From a phage, in the sequence record PZ386965.1: DNA of 64,000 bases, one strand, 5' to 3'. The translations under genes and the position numbers were made by a program. This document shows, piece by piece, positions 5,902 through 59,746 of the stretch (position 1 is the first letter of the stretch; each line of letters starts with the position of its first letter). The notes below the pieces were generated by a model that was not told the DNA's origin, made no database searches, and saw nothing but the letters and a program-made list of their open reading frames with translations.

Positions 5902-8115
5902 TTATTTGGCCGCTTCCACGGCCTTCATGAATTTAACGATTTGAGCGACCTGTTCTTTGGAAAGAGTACCACGTCGTCCCATGTATTCTGACACAATATG
6001 ATAATTGGTTTCGAATTCAATAACCATTTTATCATCATTATCGTAAGCATTATCTTTAAGCTTATTGAAAATTTTAGCACACAGTTCTAACTTCTTATTC
6101 AGGTCTGTATTAGTAGCACCTGCGAATCGATTCCATCCCCAACGATTATTTACTGTTGAGAGTTTTGCAAAGTCTTTACTGATTTCTTTGTTCTTAGAGC
6201 TAAAATACTTACTAAGGAAGTTAAGCTCTTCATTACGAGTAATATGATTCAAATAAGGCTGTGCTCTACGACTTGGTGATACATACTCATCATAATCCAC
6301 TTTATCGATTAGCGTAATATAGTCATTAATTGATTTTTCGAACAAACATTCTACTTCACCAAGTTTACGAACTTTCTTAGCAATCTGTGGACGAACTACA
6401 GTGAACTCTTTAATACCTGACAAATCAGCAATACGGGTCAAGAAATTGGAGTCATAGTTCAACCAACCTTTATCTGCGTCAAGACATTCAGCATTAGAAC
6501 GATTACGAACTATAGCATAACCTTGGATTTCATCTGCTTCACTTGCCGGAATAAAGAGGTCTTCTGATACCCAAACATCGTTTTCATTCTTAAAGAATCG
6601 ATGAGCACTTGGCGATTTAGGACGAGGCTCATTAGTCCGTTTCCTGACTTCAATCCATGGCTTAACGATTTGTAAAAGCTCTGAAGTCTTGTACATGTTA
6701 ATGTTGTCGCCATCAAAGATAACTTTAAGGCGTTCCAGAAGTTTCATTGCATCTTCGTCTGTAGGGTCAACGAATAGTACGCTTTTACCAAAACCTCGTG
6801 GAACTTTACCAGTTAATTTAACCTCGTCTTTAGACATTTCAATTGAATTAAGAGCTCGCATTAATGGAACGCGTCCCTTAACGTCGTCAATAACAATTTC
6901 AACGTTTTTAATGTTAATGCCAATCAGACTGTTAATTGAAATGGTTGCCGTTGAGCTACCACTTTCACGAATACGACGAAGACGAGGGGATTCAACGATA
7001 TCATATACGACGCCAAGATTACACCACTCAGGCCCCATTTTAAAACGTTTGTACAACTCAGAATAAGTTAGTTGTTCTTTAGAGTATTTCAGTGATTCAA
7101 TATTAGACCCAGCCTTTTCCATGTATTTACGAGCGGTATATCCAAGAGAATCAATTTCACGGAACACATGACGTGGGTATTTACAATCAATCCATTTCTT
7201 AGAATCTTCAGCGAACAATTTAGCATCGATTTCTGCAACGCGTTTATGGATATTTGCTACTGTACGTTTATCAAATGACAATGCTTCACGAGACGGAGCT
7301 ACATCTAGTTCACCCATAGGGAATTTAATATAAGCTGTAGTGCATCGCGTCATCATCCACGTTTGTTCTTTAATAACACTTCCGATTGGATATACAATAC
7401 CGCCATAAACAGCCATGATATTACCGCGTTCACCCCATGGAGCTTCCTTGGCCAAATATACATCATCAAATTCAGGGAAGTATTTAATATCTTTAACACC
7501 ACGAACTTCTGCAATATCACCTAGAGGACGCATAACATACGCAATTTCGGATGCAAACTTTTCAAAATCTTCCGGGTTAACCGGTACGACTACTTCTACA
7601 CCAGTACGGTCATCAGGACCCATCTTATCTACAAAAGTCGGCTTAATTTGTGGACCCGTGTCATCTTGGTAGATTACGTAACCACGAACTTCACCATTGT
7701 GATAAGACGTAAGGTTAAACGTATCGGTATATGCTAGTGGAGCTTTAGAGCCGAGTCCGAATCCACCAATGAAATCGTTGCTCGATGTTTTAGTTGAAGC
7801 AAAATATGAGTTATAGATTCCTGGCTCTTCGTCATTACCTCGAATGGTGAAATCGCTCATACCAGGACCAAAGTCTCGAACTACAAAGCGTGGGTCTAAA
7901 CGACCTGGAGCCTGAACAATAAACTTATCAGTGCAACCGTTAAGAATTTGTCCATCGATACAGTTTGTAATTAATTCACGTACACAAGCCAATTCTTTGT
8001 TTGTATAAAGGTCATTAGACAAAATCTTATAAACTTTGCTATTGCCTTGAATAGTGAATGCTGTGCTCTTACCGCCTGAACCAATAATCGTTTCTTTAGC
8101 CGTTTCAATAATCAT
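5902..8115 (-). CDS. rIIA: rIIA protein (GHKL-type ATPase domain)
   Basis: 737 aa, directly upstream of rIIB as in T4. Confidence 0.9.
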   Translation of the reverse strand: MIIETAKETIIGSGGKSTAFTIQGNSKVYKILSNDLYTNKELACVRELITNCIDGQILNGCTDKFIVQAPGRLDPRFVVRDFGPGMSDFTIRGNDEEPGIYNSYFASTKTSSNDFIGGFGLGSKAPLAYTDTFNLTSYHNGEVRGYVIYQDDTGPQIKPTFVDKMGPDDRTGVEVVVPVNPEDFEKFASEIAYVMRPLGDIAEVRGVKDIKYFPEFDDVYLAKEAPWGERGNIMAVYGGIVYPIGSVIKEQTWMMTRCTTAYIKFPMGELDVAPSREALSFDKRTVANIHKRVAEIDAKLFAEDSKKWIDCKYPRHVFREIDSLGYTARKYMEKAGSNIESLKYSKEQLTYSELYKRFKMGPEWCNLGVVYDIVESPRLRRIRESGSSTATISINSLIGINIKNVEIVIDDVKGRVPLMRALNSIEMSKDEVKLTGKVPRGFGKSVLFVDPTDEDAMKLLERLKVIFDGDNINMYKTSELLQIVKPWIEVRKRTNEPRPKSPSAHRFFKNENDVWVSEDLFIPASEADEIQGYAIVRNRSNAECLDADKGWLNYDSNFLTRIADLSGIKEFTVVRPQIAKKVRKLGEVECLFEKSINDYITLIDKVDYDEYVSPSRRAQPYLNHITRNEELNFLSKYFSSKNKEISKDFAKLSTVNNRWGWNRFAGATNTDLNKKLELCAKIFNKLKDNAYDNDDKMVIEFETNYHIVSEYMGRRGTLSKEQVAQIVKFMKAVEAAK

Positions 8116-12075: not shown

Positions 12076-12498
12076 TTATTCCTTAAAATGTGCTTTCAAC
12101 ATTTGATACAAAGACCATGCCTGGTCGTTATTTTCGATAGTAACTTTCATTACTGGGAATTCTGTGAAATCTTCTATCTGTTCTTGCTCTTCAGATGCTT
12201 GATATGGATTTCCAACTTCATCAAAAAACTCTGCTTCACTAGTAGAGAGCCAGATAAAGTTTTCATCAAGGATATCACCGCCTGTTGCGTATCCAACCAT
12301 GCCAGTAGATGTCACAATTTTAGTAGGACGTCCAAGATGGTCAACATCTAATACTTTAAATGGTTCCATGCCAAGACGTCGTGCATAAATCCCATTATCA
12401 GTATGGTCTTTAATAAACTCTTCTTGGGCACGTTTATCTTTAAATTGGTACCATGAGTTAACGCGGAATTTATTAGCCATTAGTAAGTTTCCTTCCAA
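12076..12498 (-). CDS. hypothetical protein, 140 aa
   Basis: ORF. Confidence 0.55.
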
Positions 12499-12752
12499 TA
12501 AGTTGTACCGTTTTCAGTGATTTCACGGAAGATACCATAGATAGGCATTTCATCACCGAGTTTTTCGTAAACGTAAACCACTTCAGTGTAGCATAAAAAT
12601 TCAGTCCAGTTTTTCTGTACAACAACTAAATCAGGATTAAACAGAACATCTTCAAACTCATCGATGTTTGAATCAGTAGTTACGTTTTTAATGATTTGAC
12701 GTTTCATAATATTCTCCTCTTGTTTTGATATGACTATAGTATCATAGGCCAT
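12480..12752 (-). CDS. hypothetical protein, 90 aa
   Basis: ORF. Confidence 0.45.
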
Positions 12753-12764
12753 AGTTGTTGTACA

Positions 12765-13289
12765 TCATTTTAGCAAAATAAAATCAACTTGTTCTGCCAA
12801 TGAACGTCTAAACATTAATTGACAACTTCCGAGGATGAAATCAGGTGCTTCATAGACAGCGATGTAGTATCCTTTAGCTTTCAAGAGTTCAACATCCACT
12901 TGGTCATCAAACCATGCATAAACCGCGTCAACACTTTCAAATCCAAAATAGAACCCTTGAGCCCAATCTTCACTCAATTCAAATGTGTACTCAATTCTAT
13001 GGTATCTTAAGATATTTTGTTCAAGGAGTTTGTCTTCATTTACTGTAGGACGATTAGGGACATTATAGTTGTCGCCGTGATGGTAGAAGTTACCTGAGAT
13101 TATTCCATGTTTATCAAGGAACTCCCATGTTTCTTCGGAGTTGTCAGTGCCAGACCAACCGTAAGGTGAGCGAGGTTCTTTATTCCAAGAGGTTTCCCAA
13201 ATTCTGACGGCTTTACCGTCTTCGATAACAATTCCTGGTAATGATTCACGTTGAGTACAAAAACTACGTTCTACGCGATAAACTAACAT
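12765..13289 (-). CDS. hypothetical protein, 174 aa
   Basis: ORF with early-type promoter upstream. Confidence 0.55.
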   Translation of the reverse strand: MLVYRVERSFCTQRESLPGIVIEDGKAVRIWETSWNKEPRSPYGWSGTDNSEETWEFLDKHGIISGNFYHHGDNYNVPNRPTVNEDKLLEQNILRYHRIEYTFELSEDWAQGFYFGFESVDAVYAWFDDQVDVELLKAKGYYIAVYEAPDFILGSCQLMFRRSLAEQVDFILLK

Positions 13290-13348
13290 ATTATTCTCCT
13301 CTGGTTGATATGGTTATAATATCAAAACCAGAGGAGAAGTAAACAACT

Positions 13349-13768
13349 TTATGCGAAAGCAGCTGGGCTATATTTTTTAATTTGGAATTCAGGAACTACC
13401 ATGAACTGCCCGGCAAAAACAATGTTATAAAGCTTGACACCATCTTCTACCCAACGGTCGCTAATAAATCCAGCGATTTGCTTAGTTTTCCATGGTGTTC
13501 CATCAGTTGCCGCAGCAATAGTGAATTCATGGTCTTTTTCAACAGAAACTGATCTGCATAGTCCCCATTTGAACGCTTTTTCTTCTGGCTCAATGAACTG
13601 GCTTTTAACGTAACCAATGTTGCCATCAGCATCACGAACTTTAACTTCATTGCGACCAAAAACAGGATCACTTACATAAAGAACTTCAACCAACTTACCA
13701 GCAACTTTAGAGCGAGAAGCATCCGATACGTGTACGTAATCACCAATAGAGAGATTTGCAATATTCAT
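13349..13768 (-). CDS. paralog family member 1 (C-terminal GFISDRWVEDG..LYNIVF motif)
   Basis: 139 aa; shares N- and C-terminal motifs with next two genes. Confidence 0.6.
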   Translation of the reverse strand: MNIANLSIGDYVHVSDASRSKVAGKLVEVLYVSDPVFGRNEVKVRDADGNIGYVKSQFIEPEEKAFKWGLCRSVSVEKDHEFTIAAATDGTPWKTKQIAGFISDRWVEDGVKLYNIVFAGQFMVVPEFQIKKYSPAAFA

Positions 13769-13777
13769 AATAATTCC

Positions 13778-14233
13778 TTAAGCTTTACGAGGAGATACAT
13801 AGCGAGTGATTTCAGATTCTTTAACAACTCTGAAGTCACCTAAGAATACGATATTGTATAACTTTTCACCATCTTCTACCCATTGGTCACTAATGAAGCC
13901 ACACATGATATCAGTTTTGTTTGGATAACCATATTCGTCGATGAAATCAAATTCTTTATCAGTCCGGAATTCAACGCCTTTGCAAAGGGCCCATTTGAAC
14001 TGTACATTAGGTTCAGTAGAAGCAAAATGAGCGCTCACATGAGTTTCCAAGAATTTAGGACTTACGTAAGCGTACTGAGTTTCAGTTTTTCCAGAACTAG
14101 GAATGATTCGAACTTTAACTTCTTTAACACGACCAGTACCATTAGTACGAAGTCCTACCACTTCAACTAGACGACCTGCAGCTTTAGAACGAGATGCAGA
14201 CGATACACGCTTAATTTCACCAATAGTAATCAT
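13778..14233 (-). CDS. paralog family member 2
   Basis: start moved to internal Met (MITIGEIK) because a promoter lies inside the ORF-track N-terminal extension. Confidence 0.6.
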   Translation of the reverse strand: MITIGEIKRVSSASRSKAAGRLVEVVGLRTNGTGRVKEVKVRIIPSSGKTETQYAYVSPKFLETHVSAHFASTEPNVQFKWALCKGVEFRTDKEFDFIDEYGYPNKTDIMCGFISDQWVEDGEKLYNIVFLGDFRVVKESEITRYVSPRKA

Positions 14234-14263
14234 AATTTCTCTCTCTTTGTTTAAGTTGAATTC

Positions 14264-14293
14264 ATTATACTCCATCCATCCTTGGATGTACAA
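14264..14293 (-). promoter_or_regulatory. promoter for paralog member 2
   Basis: TTGTAC - 18 nt - TATAAT with CCAAGGATGG spacer. Confidence 0.5.
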
Positions 14294-14295
14294 CA

Positions 14296-14790
14296 TTAAT
14301 TTAGAATATTAACTACTGCACTACGTGGAACCACACTAAAATCACCAGCATGAACAACGTTCAGAAGTTCAACACCGTCTTCAATCCACTGATCAGTTAC
14401 CCATCCATTTACTGGACCAGCGAATGGGCGTCGAATTGAAACATATTTACACAACAAATCAGTAGGCTCAATAGGCTTAATCAGAGTACCGTACATACAA
14501 GCGATATCCATATCAATACAGATGTCTTTAACGGGTTCTACTTCTTCAATCAACAGTTCAAAGTCGGTGCTTGGAAGGGCGGTGGTAGAAATTGTACCGT
14601 ATGAATTTTTAATTTCTAAGAATAACCAAGGGCCTTCAGCTTGTTTGATGAAGTTAACAATAGTGAAACTATTACCTTGAGTGGCACCTAAAATTTCACA
14701 AAACTTTTCATAAGCTCGCATTGAAGCACCGTACCAGTTAATTTGTTTTTCGTCTTTCAGGATGTAAGTAGCCGTGGTATTGATATTCAT
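14296..14790 (-). CDS. paralog family member 3
   Basis: 164 aa; C-terminal GWVTDQWIEDG..LLNVVH motif; own promoter. Confidence 0.6.
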   Translation of the reverse strand: MNINTTATYILKDEKQINWYGASMRAYEKFCEILGATQGNSFTIVNFIKQAEGPWLFLEIKNSYGTISTTALPSTDFELLIEEVEPVKDICIDMDIACMYGTLIKPIEPTDLLCKYVSIRRPFAGPVNGWVTDQWIEDGVELLNVVHAGDFSVVPRSAVVNILN

Positions 14791-14822
14791 AATGTTTTTT
14801 CCTGTTTGGTTAAGATAGAAAT

Positions 14823-14852
14823 ATTATACTCCAACCATCCTTGGTTGTAAAC
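14823..14852 (-). promoter_or_regulatory. promoter for paralog member 3
   Basis: GTTTAC - 18 nt (CAACCA..TGGTTG inverted repeat) - TATAAT. Confidence 0.55.
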
Positions 14853-14857
14853 TGTTT

Positions 14858-15535
14858 TTATCGCTGTTTTACACTTAACGGGTCAGGATTCTCAGGGACA
14901 TCTTCAAGGCCAAGCGCATAACGCTGAGCATATTTTAACATCAAAATATCTTTAGCACAATCGTGAATACTATCATGGGCAACGAATCCTTTTAGCGTAC
15001 CCATCGGTAATGGACACATACTTAATCCTCGTGTCAACGAGTAAGCTTCGATTGCCGTACGAATATCACGTTGAGCCCAGAATTTAACAGGTTCTAATTT
15101 ATCGGTATCAATATCTGGTTCAAGAACACCTTCATCACGATAGAGGTCACGAATCAAATCGACCAAGATCGGGAAGTCAAAGCTCATACCACGGCACCAC
15201 ATCTGTGATTTCCATTGGTCAACTTTATTAGCTCGACAATAATCTAAAAAGATTTTAATGCCTTCAAGCGTAGTGACATCGTCTTCAGACGGGGCCAGGT
15301 TTTTACGTGCTTCTGCTGATTGTTCTTTCCACCATTTCATAGTGGATTTAGCGAAAACTCGCTTCCCTTTTTGAGAAGCTAAATTAAATTTAATTCGCTT
15401 ACCTCGTTGAACAAGTTCTTCAAATGTTTCAACAACTTCAGGGTCCGAATTATATGCAATAACCGCAAGGTCAATAACAGCCGCTTTTGATGTATTGCCG
15501 AATGTTTCAAAGTCTATAATAACATCAGTGCTCAT
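14858..15535 (-). CDS. dexA: exonuclease A (DEDD 3'-5' exonuclease)
   Basis: 225 aa; IIDFETFG Exo I motif; T4 DexA size and position. Confidence 0.8.
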   Translation of the reverse strand: MSTDVIIDFETFGNTSKAAVIDLAVIAYNSDPEVVETFEELVQRGKRIKFNLASQKGKRVFAKSTMKWWKEQSAEARKNLAPSEDDVTTLEGIKIFLDYCRANKVDQWKSQMWCRGMSFDFPILVDLIRDLYRDEGVLEPDIDTDKLEPVKFWAQRDIRTAIEAYSLTRGLSMCPLPMGTLKGFVAHDSIHDCAKDILMLKYAQRYALGLEDVPENPDPLSVKQR

Positions 15536-15544
15536 AATTTTCTC

Positions 15545-16858
15545 TCAAATAAAATGGACGTCAAAACGACCACGAGTTGTGCCGACATACAATAACTGTT
15601 TAGCTAATTCTGAATCGGCGTAATGGATACACGGTGTATAAACAAAGGCCGTGTCAACAGACATACCCTGGGCCTTATGGAAGGTTGATACTGGTAGTGC
15701 CTTTACCTTAGTGAACATACGTTTAGCATCCCAGAATTCACTCCATGGAGCTTTACCACCTTTATTCCAGAATTTGTATGTTTCTGCGGTCTTAGCCAAA
15801 AACAAATTGAATTTATAAAGCTCTTCTTCGGAAGAAATAACCTTTATATCTTCGCGGATGTATTCTTCATCATCCCCATATGTTTCTACTGTAAGATTCC
15901 AGTATCGTATCATATATTCGCCTGAAACACCGCGTGCTTTAACGAATGTAGACGTTTCTACAGCGTCTCGAATACGAACGAATTGCCCGTTATTGAAAAG
16001 CATTTCGGTCATATTTTTGCCATCTAGCTTATATGTCTTAGTAAATGGCTCTTGTAGAACAATGACTTCGTCTTTAATAAATGGCTTTTCTGTTTCAAAA
16101 AGTTTTCGGCGAATAATTGAATTCAACTTATCTACTGACTTATTTGTGAATGCCATCATTCGATTTTCGAAAAGGTCTTCAGGAGTTTTAACGACATTAA
16201 AATAATTCATCATATACGATTTAAGGTCTGTATATCCATGAACACCATGCCCATCAACTACTTTATCATAAATCCATTTGCCATTACGAATATCAGTCGC
16301 AACATCAATAATTGGCGCATTGCTACGTTTAACTTCTGTAAGGTCGCATTGCACGAAGTCTTTGTGAGTGAAGAAAGGACTTAGATACGCAGTTGATTCG
16401 CCTGGGTCCACCGGTCGAATCTGACATCGGTCACCAATTCCAATTACTGTACACCATTTAGGGATACTAGCTAACATTATTTTAAACAGAGAACGGTCGC
16501 ACATTGACGCTTCATCAAATAACAGTACACGGCACAAGGCTAAGTCGGGAACCTTTTTCTGTTCAAATAATACGTTTTCTTCGTATGTGGTTGGGTTGAT
16601 TTTAAGAATGCTATGAATGGTTGATGCTTCTTGACCAGCAAGTTTGCTTAGAACCTTTTTAGCAGCATGTGTAGGGGCTGCTAAAATAATACCTGATTCT
16701 CCGGCAGAAATAAGAGCTTCAACAATAAATCTAGTAAGGGTTGTTTTACCTGTACCAGCAGGCCCATTAATAGTTACGTGATGTTTCTTTTCTTTAATAG
16801 CTTTCATAACAACGTTGAAGGCGTTTTTCTGGCCTTCAGTCAAATCATCAAATGTCAT
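15545..16858 (-). CDS. dda: Dda DNA helicase (SF1)
   Basis: 437 aa; Walker A GPAGTGKTT; T4 Dda size and synteny. Confidence 0.85.
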   Translation of the reverse strand: MTFDDLTEGQKNAFNVVMKAIKEKKHHVTINGPAGTGKTTLTRFIVEALISAGESGIILAAPTHAAKKVLSKLAGQEASTIHSILKINPTTYEENVLFEQKKVPDLALCRVLLFDEASMCDRSLFKIMLASIPKWCTVIGIGDRCQIRPVDPGESTAYLSPFFTHKDFVQCDLTEVKRSNAPIIDVATDIRNGKWIYDKVVDGHGVHGYTDLKSYMMNYFNVVKTPEDLFENRMMAFTNKSVDKLNSIIRRKLFETEKPFIKDEVIVLQEPFTKTYKLDGKNMTEMLFNNGQFVRIRDAVETSTFVKARGVSGEYMIRYWNLTVETYGDDEEYIREDIKVISSEEELYKFNLFLAKTAETYKFWNKGGKAPWSEFWDAKRMFTKVKALPVSTFHKAQGMSVDTAFVYTPCIHYADSELAKQLLYVGTTRGRFDVHFI

Positions 16859-56427: not shown

Positions 56428-56732
56428 TATAATGTTCTCTCAAATTTGTGGAAGCATTTACGGCATTTCAATTTCAAGTTATCAGTGGTCCAGTTAACCA
56501 GTTGGACTTGGATAGTTCCACATTCCGGGCATGGATGTTTTGCTGCCGATTTGGCAGCATTTTCACGTCGTTCAACCATTTTCATTATTTCGTTCCATGC
56601 TGGAGGAACGAACTCTTCTTCACCGTGGATTTTATCTCGCTGAACAAATTCAATCTTTGAACTATCGTCAATAAACTTAACCAAGCCATGATTAGTGCTC
56701 ATATCAATATCCTCTAAAAGACGTAGGTTCAT
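56427..56732 (-). CDS. zinc-ribbon protein, 101 aa
   Basis: C-terminal CPEC...CRKC. Confidence 0.5.
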   Translation of the reverse strand: MNLRLLEDIDMSTNHGLVKFIDDSSKIEFVQRDKIHGEEEFVPPAWNEIMKMVERRENAAKSAAKHPCPECGTIQVQLVNWTTDNLKLKCRKCFHKFERTL

Positions 56733-57673
56733 TATAACACCTCAATGGCATTTCGTAAACCGTCCGCTTTCGCATTCAGAGCTTTTAACGATTTAGTCTG
56801 TTCTTTAATCTGAGCTTCGACTTCTTTCAGACGAGATTTGAGATATTCACGTTCTTCGCTCAGGTTATCAACCTTTTCAACTTTAGGTTCTTTAGGCTTA
56901 TACTCGTTAGGATTCTTCAGTTTAATTCGAATTCGAGAACTGAATAACATTGAACCGTTATCTTCGGTTTCGTCGAACATTTCAACAACATCCATAGTCT
57001 GTAACATCACGCAGAGTTTATAAGACAACGAACGAATAGTTTTGTTGTGCTTATTAATTTCTTCGGCTTTCATGGCACCGAGATTACGTGAGTAGTAATA
57101 AGGAACCTGGATATCAATTGATAATGATGCGTTACCATTACCTGTTGGTTTGAATACTGCAGTAACCCAATCTTTAACATGAACTTTATTTGTACGATCA
57201 TCGCCGCCTGTGAATAATTTACGAGAATGTTTAAAAAGCATATTCACTTGGTTATTGAATTCACAAGCAAATTTATCAGCAAATTTAGTTTCAGGAATGG
57301 TAGATAACCAATCAGCCAAATGAGTCTTTTTAACATCATTAACAATAGTGAATTCAACCAAATCGGTTTTAGATGTCACAGATTTAATAAAGCTCGGTTT
57401 CATAAAGTTTTTAATGTTATCGCGAGCTACAGTAGAAGATAATAAACGAGAACGTTTGAACCATTGAAGCAGCGTCCCTAATGAATGAGAATATGCATTT
57501 TGAGTATCTTTACAGATATGATTTTCTTGGTCCGTGTATGTACCAAAATCTCGAAGAATACCACTTACTACATCTCGGTGTGGAATATCAAATCCTAGTG
57601 CACCAGAAGCGCGCTGAGCATGAACGTTAGCGATAAGACCGGCAAAGTATTCAATGTAATGTGAACGTGTCAT
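56732..57673 (-). CDS. hypothetical protein with C-terminal coiled coil, 313 aa
   Basis: ORF behind CCAAGGATGG-type promoter. Confidence 0.55.
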   Translation of the reverse strand: MTRSHYIEYFAGLIANVHAQRASGALGFDIPHRDVVSGILRDFGTYTDQENHICKDTQNAYSHSLGTLLQWFKRSRLLSSTVARDNIKNFMKPSFIKSVTSKTDLVEFTIVNDVKKTHLADWLSTIPETKFADKFACEFNNQVNMLFKHSRKLFTGGDDRTNKVHVKDWVTAVFKPTGNGNASLSIDIQVPYYYSRNLGAMKAEEINKHNKTIRSLSYKLCVMLQTMDVVEMFDETEDNGSMLFSSRIRIKLKNPNEYKPKEPKVEKVDNLSEEREYLKSRLKEVEAQIKEQTKSLKALNAKADGLRNAIEVL

Positions 57674-57735
57674 AATATTTTCCTCTCGTTAAGATAGAAA
57701 GATTATACTCTAACCATCCTTGGTTGTAAACTGAT

Positions 57736-58695
57736 TTATGATTTTAATGCATTCATTGCGTTAAAAAGTTTAGAGTATTGCAACTGGAGATTGGTCACCA
57801 CCTGTTGAGCATCACGAAGCTTAGCTTGTGCCTTATCAAGTTCAGCAGACAGTTGGTCTACAGTAGCCTTGATTTGATTGTAATAATAATCTTCAGCCGG
57901 AAGAAGGTCATTAGAAACATTTAGTTTTACTGCCGACAGTTTGCACACATTTGGCAAACCTTTAAACATACCAGATTGTGCTGGAGAATATGCACCTAGA
58001 ACCTCTGCATTACCGACTGGTGTTGCTGTAATATTGCCTTCAAACAATGCATTTTCCTTTTTAAGATTTTGATAGTATTCAGAGTCTTTGTGCCACCATG
58101 GTGCAGGAACCTTTTTACCAATAGATACACGAGCTTGGATAGCGATATGGCCCTTATTCTTGATAAGGTCGACAATATTAAGCTCACGAGAATAAATTGC
58201 TTTAATCTGGTGGATATTATCACCTAAAACTTCCAACGCTTGGTGGAATACACGAGCAACGTTATCATTCTTAGGTTTATACGTAAGAGTGAACTCATTC
58301 TCACTGATAACCATGATTTCCAACTTATCGTAAGTATATTTCAAATGTTTCATGTTAATTGCTTGAGGACGAATACGAGAAGCAATGGCCATCAGATTGT
58401 TAAGGTTATTCCGGAACTGCTTAGCGAAATATTGTCCTTCACCGCCAATACAAAAATTACGAAGTTTCTGTTTGGCCAGTAAACGACTGAACTCGCCATT
58501 TTTAATGAACTCTTTAACGGGTGTGTTAGTAACGCATTCAAATTGAGTAAACTTACGAGAATTAATCCCATAATACGAACAGATTTCTTCAATCTCTTCA
58601 GGAGTCTTTACAGGCATACGGATAGGATTAGGTCCTGGGGTATATGCGTTCGAGGTAAATTCTTTGATAAGTTCTCTACGTGTAATAAAAGCCAT
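57736..58695 (-). CDS. hypothetical protein with C-terminal coiled coil, 319 aa
   Basis: ORF behind CCAAGGATGG-type promoter. Confidence 0.55.
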   Translation of the reverse strand: MAFITRRELIKEFTSNAYTPGPNPIRMPVKTPEEIEEICSYYGINSRKFTQFECVTNTPVKEFIKNGEFSRLLAKQKLRNFCIGGEGQYFAKQFRNNLNNLMAIASRIRPQAINMKHLKYTYDKLEIMVISENEFTLTYKPKNDNVARVFHQALEVLGDNIHQIKAIYSRELNIVDLIKNKGHIAIQARVSIGKKVPAPWWHKDSEYYQNLKKENALFEGNITATPVGNAEVLGAYSPAQSGMFKGLPNVCKLSAVKLNVSNDLLPAEDYYYNQIKATVDQLSAELDKAQAKLRDAQQVVTNLQLQYSKLFNAMNALKS

Positions 58696-58750
58696 TTTAT
58701 ATTCCTCATGTTGAAAAATTTATTATACTCCAACCATCCTTGGTTGTACA

Positions 58751-59746
58751 TCATTCCTTAAGAAGTTTTACTACTTGAATAAGATTAGCTCGTTCTGTTT
58801 TATTTTTACCATTTAAGCCTGCTAATCGTGAGATTTCATCGTCAGTCTGTTGAATAGTTACATTAAGTTCGTTAATCAAAGCTTCAAAGTATTTGATTTG
58901 CTCAGCATGTTTTGATTCAAATTTCTGAACCGGAATAACGTCTTGGTTTAGTTCGTCAATAAGGTCTTTAAGAGCATCTTCTTGGTTGATATCGTATTCA
59001 ACTTCTTTTATTTCTTCAACTAGCTCGTCTTTATATCTAACGTCTTTTAGTCCTGGTGCTGGTCCTGAAATCTCTTCTTTAAGAGTACAAACATACCCAA
59101 TACGGTATCCAGTGCCGTCTCGCTTGATATCAACTTCGTCGATAAATCCACAATGTTTGAGACCAGAGCCGATTAGGTCAAAATATCCTTGACGACGTCC
59201 TTCAAACGTTACACGAACTACTAAGACAGTTTTGCCTGCAATCTTTTGAAGCTCACATTTATAAAAGTCAGTTGAACCTGAATAACGTGGATGAGTTTTA
59301 AAGTTCATCTGACGATCTAGGCCCATTTGTAAACGTGCTGTTACGGCCATAAAACGTGTTTGGTTCTCGTTAAGATGAGCAACAATCCATTTCAAAGGCA
59401 TTTTACACTGTTCACGACCGAACAAATCAGTACGTCCTAGATTACGCAGGATGTTGTTAGAGTTAATCATCGACAGAACGTTAAGTTTATTCAGCGCGCT
59501 GAAGATTCCATCAGCCATTGATTTTCCGTAGCCTTTACACGCTTTAATAAGCGCTCGCGGTAGATTAGTATAGATTTCAGACGGCATATGAAAATCAAAT
59601 TTACTAACCAGTAATTGATGAACTTGGATAGCAATTCGTTCATAATTAAGCGCTCTGCGATCATTATGGTCTTTAAACCACACTTTAATCTGTGAAGCAC
59701 ATAAACCGTTAATTTCATGTTTTATCGCATCAGATGTAATGCTCAT
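58751..59746 (-). CDS. hypothetical protein with C-terminal coiled coil, 331 aa
   Basis: ORF behind related promoter. Confidence 0.55.
   Translation of the reverse strand: MSITSDAIKHEINGLCASQIKVWFKDHNDRRALNYERIAIQVHQLLVSKFDFHMPSEIYTNLPRALIKACKGYGKSMADGIFSALNKLNVLSMINSNNILRNLGRTDLFGREQCKMPLKWIVAHLNENQTRFMAVTARLQMGLDRQMNFKTHPRYSGSTDFYKCELQKIAGKTVLVVRVTFEGRRQGYFDLIGSGLKHCGFIDEVDIKRDGTGYRIGYVCTLKEEISGPAPGLKDVRYKDELVEEIKEVEYDINQEDALKDLIDELNQDVIPVQKFESKHAEQIKYFEALINELNVTIQQTDDEISRLAGLNGKNKTERANLIQVVKLLKE

Follow-up and report, generated by a model that had tools for sequence, protein, structure and literature searches.

The DNA analyzed here, sequence record PZ386965.1 from a phage (64,000 nucleotides, hereafter the window), carries three consecutive minus-strand genes between positions 13349 and 14790, and these genes are, with a confidence of roughly 80%, the motB.1-motB-motB-like block of an RB69-type (Mosigvirus) T-even phage. 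This confidence applies to the reading as a whole, including identity, domain architecture, expression, selection, exchange, and inferred function. The three open reading frames (ORFs) of 139, 151, and 164 amino acids (aa) are those described in an earlier note made from the sequence alone, which regarded them as a tandem triplication. The 139- and 151-aa genes are indeed full-length paralogues, but the 164-aa gene is an orthologue of motB.1 that shares only the C-terminal domain with them, its N-terminal domain being unrelated to theirs. Two separate relationships are combined in the locus, a full-length duplication of motB and an older sharing with motB.1 that is limited to the C-terminal domain. 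The three genes, in the order of transcription, are:

14296-14790, minus strand: motB.1 orthologue, 164 aa (BLASTP to T4 MotB.1, E = 4e-27; phrog_2333; annotated in RB69 as motB.1 plus ORF012)
13778-14233, minus strand: motB, 151 aa (PF17613, 131.1 bits over the full length; phrog_1671, 5.5e-64; 50% identity to T4 MotB in an end-to-end alignment)
13349-13768, minus strand: second motB-like paralogue, 139 aa, orthologue of RB69 ORF010c (PF17613, 81.4 bits; phrog_1671, 7.8e-52)

In pairwise BLASTP, the 139- and 151-aa proteins aligned over their full length (E = 3e-32, 44% identity over 145 aa), and the matches of the 164-aa protein to the 151-aa protein (E = 3e-10) and the 139-aa protein (E = 2e-10) were confined to the last 36-60 residues. 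These similarities are far beyond chance, and the motifs pointed out earlier are thus statistically significant. Of the three proteins, only those of 139 and 151 aa contain the N-terminal block reported for two members (SIGDYVHVSDASRSKVAGKLVEV and TIGEIKRVSSASRSKAAGRLVEV), and the C-terminal block reported for all three reads GFISD(R/Q)WVEDG.KLYNIVF.G.F.VV in the 139- and 151-aa proteins and takes the diverged form GWVTDQWIEDGVELLNVVHAGDFSVV in the 164-aa protein. All three proteins scored above the curated threshold of 25 bits for PF17613 (motB), the 164-aa protein with 35.1 bits over residues 84-159 only. In PHROGs, the latter matched phrog_2333 over residues 1-164 (2.6e-82) and cross-matched the MotB-like phrog_1671 with its C-terminal domain only (8e-15). 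The full two-domain layout, a KOW-like N-terminal domain with the SRSK..G.LVEV motif followed by the C-terminal domain, is present in the 151- and 139-aa proteins. The 164-aa protein has a different N-terminal domain, which is similar to that of T4 MotB.1 along its length as well, and was assigned to the MotB.1 subgroup. NCBIfam gave zero matches, and searching solved structures by sequence with MotB and MotB.1 as queries returned nothing meaningful (E = 0.7 and 0.04, respectively). With a profile of the C-terminal domain, 1.84 billion representative proteins yielded only 28 clusters, mostly family-like proteins of 100-250 aa, several of them T-even phage proteins already found, plus two weak matches to repeat proteins; therefore, the family seems to be confined to the T-even phage group.

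The window is that of an RB69-like Mosigvirus, with DNA identities of 97.9% to phage Mizar and 94.8% to RB69 over 13300-14860. RB69 has an identical gene order and identical neighbours (cef, motB.2, dexA, and dda), and its RefSeq labels at the same positions are 'MotB-like transcriptional regulator' (RB69p010; ORF010c, 'similar to motB'), motB (RB69p011), and motB.1 with a 29-aa ORF (RB69p013 and p012, the latter ORF012c). Protein identities to RB69 were 99% for the 139-aa protein (99.3% to RB69p010), 95% for the 151-aa protein, and 98% for motB.1; the difference is that motB.1 is split into 132 aa and 29 aa in the RB69 record, whereas the window has one 164-aa ORF. T4 MotB (162 aa, PF17613), to which the 139-aa protein is 46% identical in a full-length alignment, is likewise an early gene product encoded between cef and dexA behind a promoter of the same type, but T4 has a single motB copy, and its product has a longer linker. 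T4 MotB.1 (UniProt P39415, '13.8 kDa protein in motB-dexA intergenic region') belongs with GoF and Frd.2 to an LSm-like family, the family of Kim et al. 2025. Its BLASTP match to the 164-aa protein covers the N-terminal domain and the start of the C-terminal domain, and the two share the same PHROG and a structural match in BFVD; the window protein differs by a 20-residue linker insertion (DMDIACMYGTLIKP). As section 3.2 of Patterson-West et al. 2021 (PMC7827196) already gives two motB copies, one motB.1, and one 29-aa peptide for RB69, and a common C-terminal domain with different N-terminal domains for MotB and MotB.1, the finding is already known. The gene family and its Pfam model are likewise published and the locus is already annotated, so that the locus itself adds little.

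All genes in the 11.4-17.2 kb region of the window lie on the minus strand, and the order of transcription is dda, dexA, the 164-, 151-, and 139-aa genes, motB.2, and cef. The cluster is therefore transcribed after dexA and lies downstream of it (at lower coordinates), not upstream as had been stated. Its location in the cef-dexA region is the same in RB69, T4, RB51, RB3, and KRT47. The neighbouring genes are:

15545-16858, minus strand: dda
14858-15535, minus strand: dexA exonuclease, transcribed before the cluster (Pfam PF16473, 1.8e-20, and RB69/T4 annotation)
12765-13289, minus strand: motB.2 homologue (RB69 annotation; phrog_1106)
12480-12752, minus strand: cef

Upstream of the likely start, the motB frame continues for 21 codons without a stop, running through the motB promoter (14234-14296), and the stop-to-stop ORF allows 172 aa; a 172-aa protein from the upstream ATG is annotated in many database entries (e.g., P0002, P0003, and P0007). 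The 151-aa start was preferred because the promoter lies inside the extension and because MITIGE aligns with MIINIGE of T4 MotB.

Early promoters and predicted domain architecture

Own promoters had been proposed for two of the three genes, and these were located in front of motB.1 and motB, with CCAAGGATGG in both spacers. The promoter scan gave the following sites:

14851-14823, minus strand: early (sigma-70) T4-type promoter of motB.1, TTTACA-17 nt-TATAAT, 11/12 in the consensus scan, spacer ACCAAGGATGGTTGGAG
14292-14264, minus strand: T4-type early promoter of motB, TGTACA-17 nt-TATAAT, 10/12 in the consensus scan, spacer TCCAAGGATGGATGGAG
13343-13316, minus strand: early-type promoter of motB.2

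The motB.1 and motB sites fit the TTTACW-N17-TAYWAT consensus published for the T4/PST pair (PMC4122927). The scan found no promoter of its own for the 139-aa gene, which is preceded by an AAGGA ribosome-binding site and starts 9 nt past the motB stop codon; it most probably shares a transcript with motB. On the minus strand of 12700-15700, the search for terminator-like stem-loops gave nothing. The motB.1 and motB promoters are two of four near-identical 41-nt cassettes, T[TG]TACA[AT]CCAAGGATGG[TA]T[GA]GAGTATAAT, at 14851, 14292, 57730, and 58750 on the minus strand, with near-identical sequence at these extents:

14823-14851, minus strand: cassette of motB.1
14264-14292, minus strand: cassette of motB
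57702-57730, minus strand: distant cassette
58722-58750, minus strand: distant cassette

Exact CCAAGGATGG occurs four times in the window, and with one mismatch allowed, six occurrences were observed versus 1.7 expected. Near-identical early promoters ahead of variable early genes are likewise a feature of the promoter-early stem-loop (PeSL) cassettes of T4-type phages, but the window shows only the promoter half, the adjoining stem-loop not being detected. The distant cassettes at 57730 and 58750 precede genes of 313 and 319 aa, the second encoding a DUF7235 protein; these belong to three consecutive genes of 313, 319, and 331 aa (56732-59746, minus strand), of which the middle one alone was assigned to a Pfam family and which showed no BLASTP similarity in the two adjacent comparisons. 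The idea that the two distant promoters mark another paralogous array was rejected, as the downstream genes of about 315 aa lack mutual BLASTP similarity.

Structure prediction, proposed earlier as a check, gave two small beta-barrels and a disordered linker in the AlphaFold2 (AF2) models of the 151- and 164-aa proteins. The model of the 151-aa MotB (mean predicted local distance difference test score, pLDDT, 84.7) has an N-terminal barrel with strands at 7-57, a disordered linker at 66-75, and a five-stranded C-terminal barrel at 86-146; the N-terminal barrel is basic and putatively KOW-like, and the linker is variable. The model of MotB.1 (mean pLDDT 76.5) has five strands and two helices at 8-82, disorder at 86-108, and a compact C-terminal barrel at 116-161, corresponding to a putative LSm/SH3-like N-terminal domain (about 1-85), a disordered linker with DMDIACMYGTLIKP (86-108), and a C-terminal domain of MotB type (about 109-164). 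The 139-aa paralogue has the two-domain layout of MotB with a shorter N-terminal loop and linker and near-neutral charge. The models support a description as tandem SH3-like small barrels. They are compatible with the KOW label predicted for the MotB N-terminal domain in PMC7827196 and give no specific support for the OB-fold label predicted there for the C-terminal domain. In Foldseek against viral models (BFVD), the top matches were MotB.1 and MotB relatives only, including T4 P39415.

The predicted disordered linker of RB69-type MotB.1 (window 14470-14535, residues 86-108) contains the conserved peptide DMD(I/V)A(C/S)MYGTL(I/V)KP. A diverged form, DMDLVSMYV(T/A)PVEK, occurs in the linker of some Tequatrovirus MotB.1 forms, and in MotB.1-class proteins of 162-180 aa, the peptide is N-terminal, ahead of the N-terminal domain; sequences listed with it are P0134, P0135, P0142, P0143, P0145, P0149, P0153, P0154, and the ORF at 6233-6784 of locus L022. 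T4 MotB.1 is without the peptide, which looks like a movable short linear motif.

Distribution, selection, and exchange of the motB block

A presence/absence check across phages had been suggested. When 50,697 phage records were searched by tblastn with the 139-aa protein, a MotB relative was present in 765 of them, and motB copy number differed between phages. A copy with at least 80% identity to the 139-aa protein was found in 208 of the 765 records, with a second place present in every such record listed; no record fell between 60 and 80% identity, and the remaining 557 had only a copy below 60%. The carriers of the second copy include Mosigviruses and also Tequatroviruses, among the latter RB3, RB27, RB51, KRT47, teqhad, and one phage of Salmonella. 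A neighbour-joining tree was built from 12 further orthologues and 36 two-domain MotB proteins of the loci, with identical sequences merged; in it, the 139-aa clade takes a position outside the remaining MotB types of E. coli T-even phages (RB69, JS98, and T4 types), which indicates an old duplication or fast early divergence. Across 52 dexA-anchored IMG/VR loci, the C-terminal domain is combined with N-terminal regions of no fewer than four kinds.

From 13 loci (10 Mosigvirus and 3 Tequatrovirus), the genes of the cluster and three genes flanking it were compared pairwise by Nei-Gojobori distances, which gave nonsynonymous/synonymous ratios (dN/dS) and synonymous distances (dS). Within Mosigvirus, they were:

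139-aa motB-like gene: dN/dS 0.14, dS 0.31
motB: dN/dS 0.24, dS 0.38
motB.1: dN/dS 0.12, dS 0.17
dexA: dN/dS 0.03, dS 0.07
cef: dN/dS 0.08, dS 0.10
motB.2: dN/dS 0.11, dS 0.08

The diversifying selection suggested earlier for this module is not supported by these ratios among 10-13 orthologues, and no domain exceeded 0.36, the maximum, in the MotB linker. The C-terminal domain was the most constrained part of both motB (0.14) and motB.1 (0.08), and purifying selection acts on all of the 139-aa copy, the N-terminal SRSK motif included. The divergence of the cluster exceeded that of the flanks chiefly at synonymous sites (dS 0.17-0.38 versus 0.07-0.10). This extra divergence is attributed to T4-like N-terminal segments and linker insertions visible in the alignments. 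The Mosigvirus MotB alleles of L005 (6236-6778) and L062 carry a T4-like N-terminal segment (SIQLKEGVKDEDSEVKVRIIP), and some Mosigvirus alleles have acidic linker insertions of 8-14 residues, making the gene internally mosaic. As whole T4-like segments point to recombination between old alleles, the pattern appears to reflect old alleles that recombine as modules under purifying selection rather than diversifying selection.

The window proteins were 85-96% identical to those of the Tequatroviruses RB51, RB3, and KRT47, with motB.1 values spread between 48% and 96% across the three, and in the same loci, dexA was 68% and motB.2 35% identical to the window. motB.2 follows the 139-aa gene in Mosigviruses and lies between dexA and motB.1 in RB51, RB3, KRT47 (L058/L059/L060), and T4. 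The sequence comparison indicates that Mosigvirus and some Tequatrovirus phages have exchanged the motB block as a module, independently of its flanks.

Truncated motB.1 in reference records

An intact 164-aa motB.1 ORF was found in the window, Mizar, L004, L005, KRT47, and five other Mosigvirus loci (L062-L066). In the T4 record NC_000866.4, motB.1 ends with ...GWVTDQWIGRWR* (119 aa, 13.8 kDa), as one extra G (ATTGGAAG versus ATTGAAG) shifts the frame (L003 2222-2400 versus window 14296-14420); the remaining C-terminal domain, EDGVELLNVVHAGEYSVVPRSAVVAILN*, is intact in the next frame, and the 119-aa form is without the last 28 residues of the domain. Among the matches listed, 13 records match the 446-nt query over 445 nt, namely eleven re-sequenced T4/T4T genomes, RB55, and RB59. 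The extra G was absent from two re-sequenced T4 genomes that were aligned directly, which encode a 143-aa MotB.1 whose C-terminal domain is complete, and MT984581 annotates a MotB.1 of this length. This 143-aa form occurs on 256 contigs (P0116), and the allele with the extra G was found on no IMG/VR contig. In the RB69 record NC_004928, two extra Ts (CCGTTTCGC and GACGGTTGTTG) produce the split into 132 and 29 aa (L001 3993-4170 versus window 14296-14450), and the 29-aa ORF012c is the 'Category 3 peptide' of Patterson-West 2021 (PMC7827196). Programmed frameshifting was rejected as an explanation of the split motB.1, as re-sequenced T4 lacks the extra G, no IMG/VR contig has it, and the RB69 interruptions are at other positions. 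The 119-aa T4 form (P39415) and the RB69 29-aa peptide thus appear, judging from the aligned records, to result from single-base insertions in those records. Kim et al. 2025 used gene-synthesis constructs, cited NC_000866.4 coordinates for amber-mutant constructs, and quoted a 13.8-kDa monomer; from these coordinates and this mass, we infer that the truncated MotB.1 was probably the protein studied.

Predicted function and alternative explanations

The earlier view of the cluster as a host-takeover module in an early region is supported by family membership (PF17613, phrog_1671, and phrog_2333), the T4-type early promoters, and published work on T4 MotB; its anti-defence counterpart received no direct support, and no defence-related family was matched. 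T4 MotB is reported to be toxic in E. coli, highly so when expressed alone (PMC6070864), and to bind DNA tightly without sequence specificity, whether modified or unmodified (PMC6070864, PMC7827196). According to the same two reports, it co-purifies with H-NS and StpA in a DNA-dependent manner, alters H-NS footprints, up-regulates 75 host genes (roughly a third belong to the H-NS regulon), and confers a two-fold burst-size benefit; PMC7827196 also describes it as highly abundant. The phage H-NS antagonists T7 gp5.5 and T4 Arn resemble MotB in that the proposed target is H-NS-organized DNA, but they bind H-NS directly, whereas MotB associates with H-NS only when DNA is present (PMC7827196), and they have no sequence or fold relationship to MotB.

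By homology, the 151-aa protein would share the function of T4 MotB. It would be non-essential, made early and in abundance, and able to bind DNA regardless of sequence; it would coat the DNA of the host (and of the phage) and change the placement of H-NS and StpA, so that part of the H-NS regulon would be derepressed and burst size would increase modestly. As the C-terminal domain is the best conserved and the N-terminal charges differ (+8 for the N-terminal domain of motB, -1 for that of the 139-aa copy, and -9 overall with an isoelectric point of 4.5 for MotB.1), we propose that the conserved C-terminal barrel may be a common module for a shared nucleic-acid or partner contact, and that the N-terminal domains may give each paralogue a different activity. 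The basic KOW-like domain would provide strong DNA binding, the near-neutral KOW-like domain of the 139-aa copy weaker or altered binding, and the acidic LSm-like domain of MotB.1 a different role, possibly RNA- or protein-directed.

Several points weigh against this interpretation. The net charge of MotB orthologues ranges from +3 to -4 through acidic linker insertions, and this variation in whole-protein charge weakens the charge argument. T4 MotB shares just 50% identity with the 151-aa protein, and the functional evidence (DNA binding, H-NS/StpA co-purification, toxicity, and burst effect) appears to stem from T4 MotB only and not from RB69-type proteins; the published account in PMC7827196 does not say which MotB domain binds DNA. 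Deleting T4 motB.1 produced no phenotype, and an RNA reporter assay showed no effect of MotB.1 (PMC12152347); this work apparently used the truncated 119-aa form. A more elaborate scheme seems improbable: the C-terminal barrel would dock on one common host target (e.g., H-NS/StpA-coated DNA), the three N-terminal domains would deliver different activities, the promoter-less 139-aa copy would modulate toxic MotB, and DMD(I/V)A(C/S)MYGTL would be a portable peptide recruiting a further partner.

Modulation of MotB by the 139-aa copy, through pairing or competition via the C-terminal domain that tempers toxicity or DNA coating in a dominant-negative-like manner from the same transcript, is also unlikely when considered by itself. 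It would agree with the start of the 139-aa gene 9 nt after motB without a promoter of its own, with the lack of net positive charge (-1 versus +8) and of the RIIPSSGKTETQ loop in its N-terminal domain, with its occurrence only alongside RB69-type motB, and with the high toxicity of T4 MotB expressed alone. However, T4 and most Tequatroviruses do without the 139-aa copy (557 of the 765 records), and the whole-length purifying selection, SRSK included, fits an independent activity equally well. That the second copy just adds more of a functionally identical, abundant DNA-binding protein is very unlikely. The two copies agree in domain layout and family, and the reported abundance of MotB would suit such a dosage effect, but they are only 44-48% identical, and an old, separately conserved paralogue whose clade stands outside all other E. 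coli T-even types argues for a distinct role.

An arms-race array, in which paralogues are selected for new anti-defence or host-takeover specificities, is quite unlikely, even though, within Mosigvirus, no other protein of the neighbourhood varies as much as MotB (75-97% aa identity versus 99% for dexA), with the variation located in the N-terminal loop and the linker, and copy number differs between phages. The ratios (0.12-0.24 for whole genes, with no domain above 0.36), the mostly synonymous nature of the extra divergence, the T4-like segments of L005 and L062, and the absence of any defence-related family match all speak against it and leave the motB.1-motB-motB-like block, recombined under purifying selection, as the preferred reading.

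Taken together, the second motB copy appears to be an old paralogue; roughly one in four MotB-bearing phage genomes carry it, and it is not a peculiarity of RB69. For those working on T4 early genes, it may be useful that the block appears to be shuffled between genera yet kept under purifying selection, and that intact MotB.1, as in the window, carries a complete MotB-type C-terminal domain.

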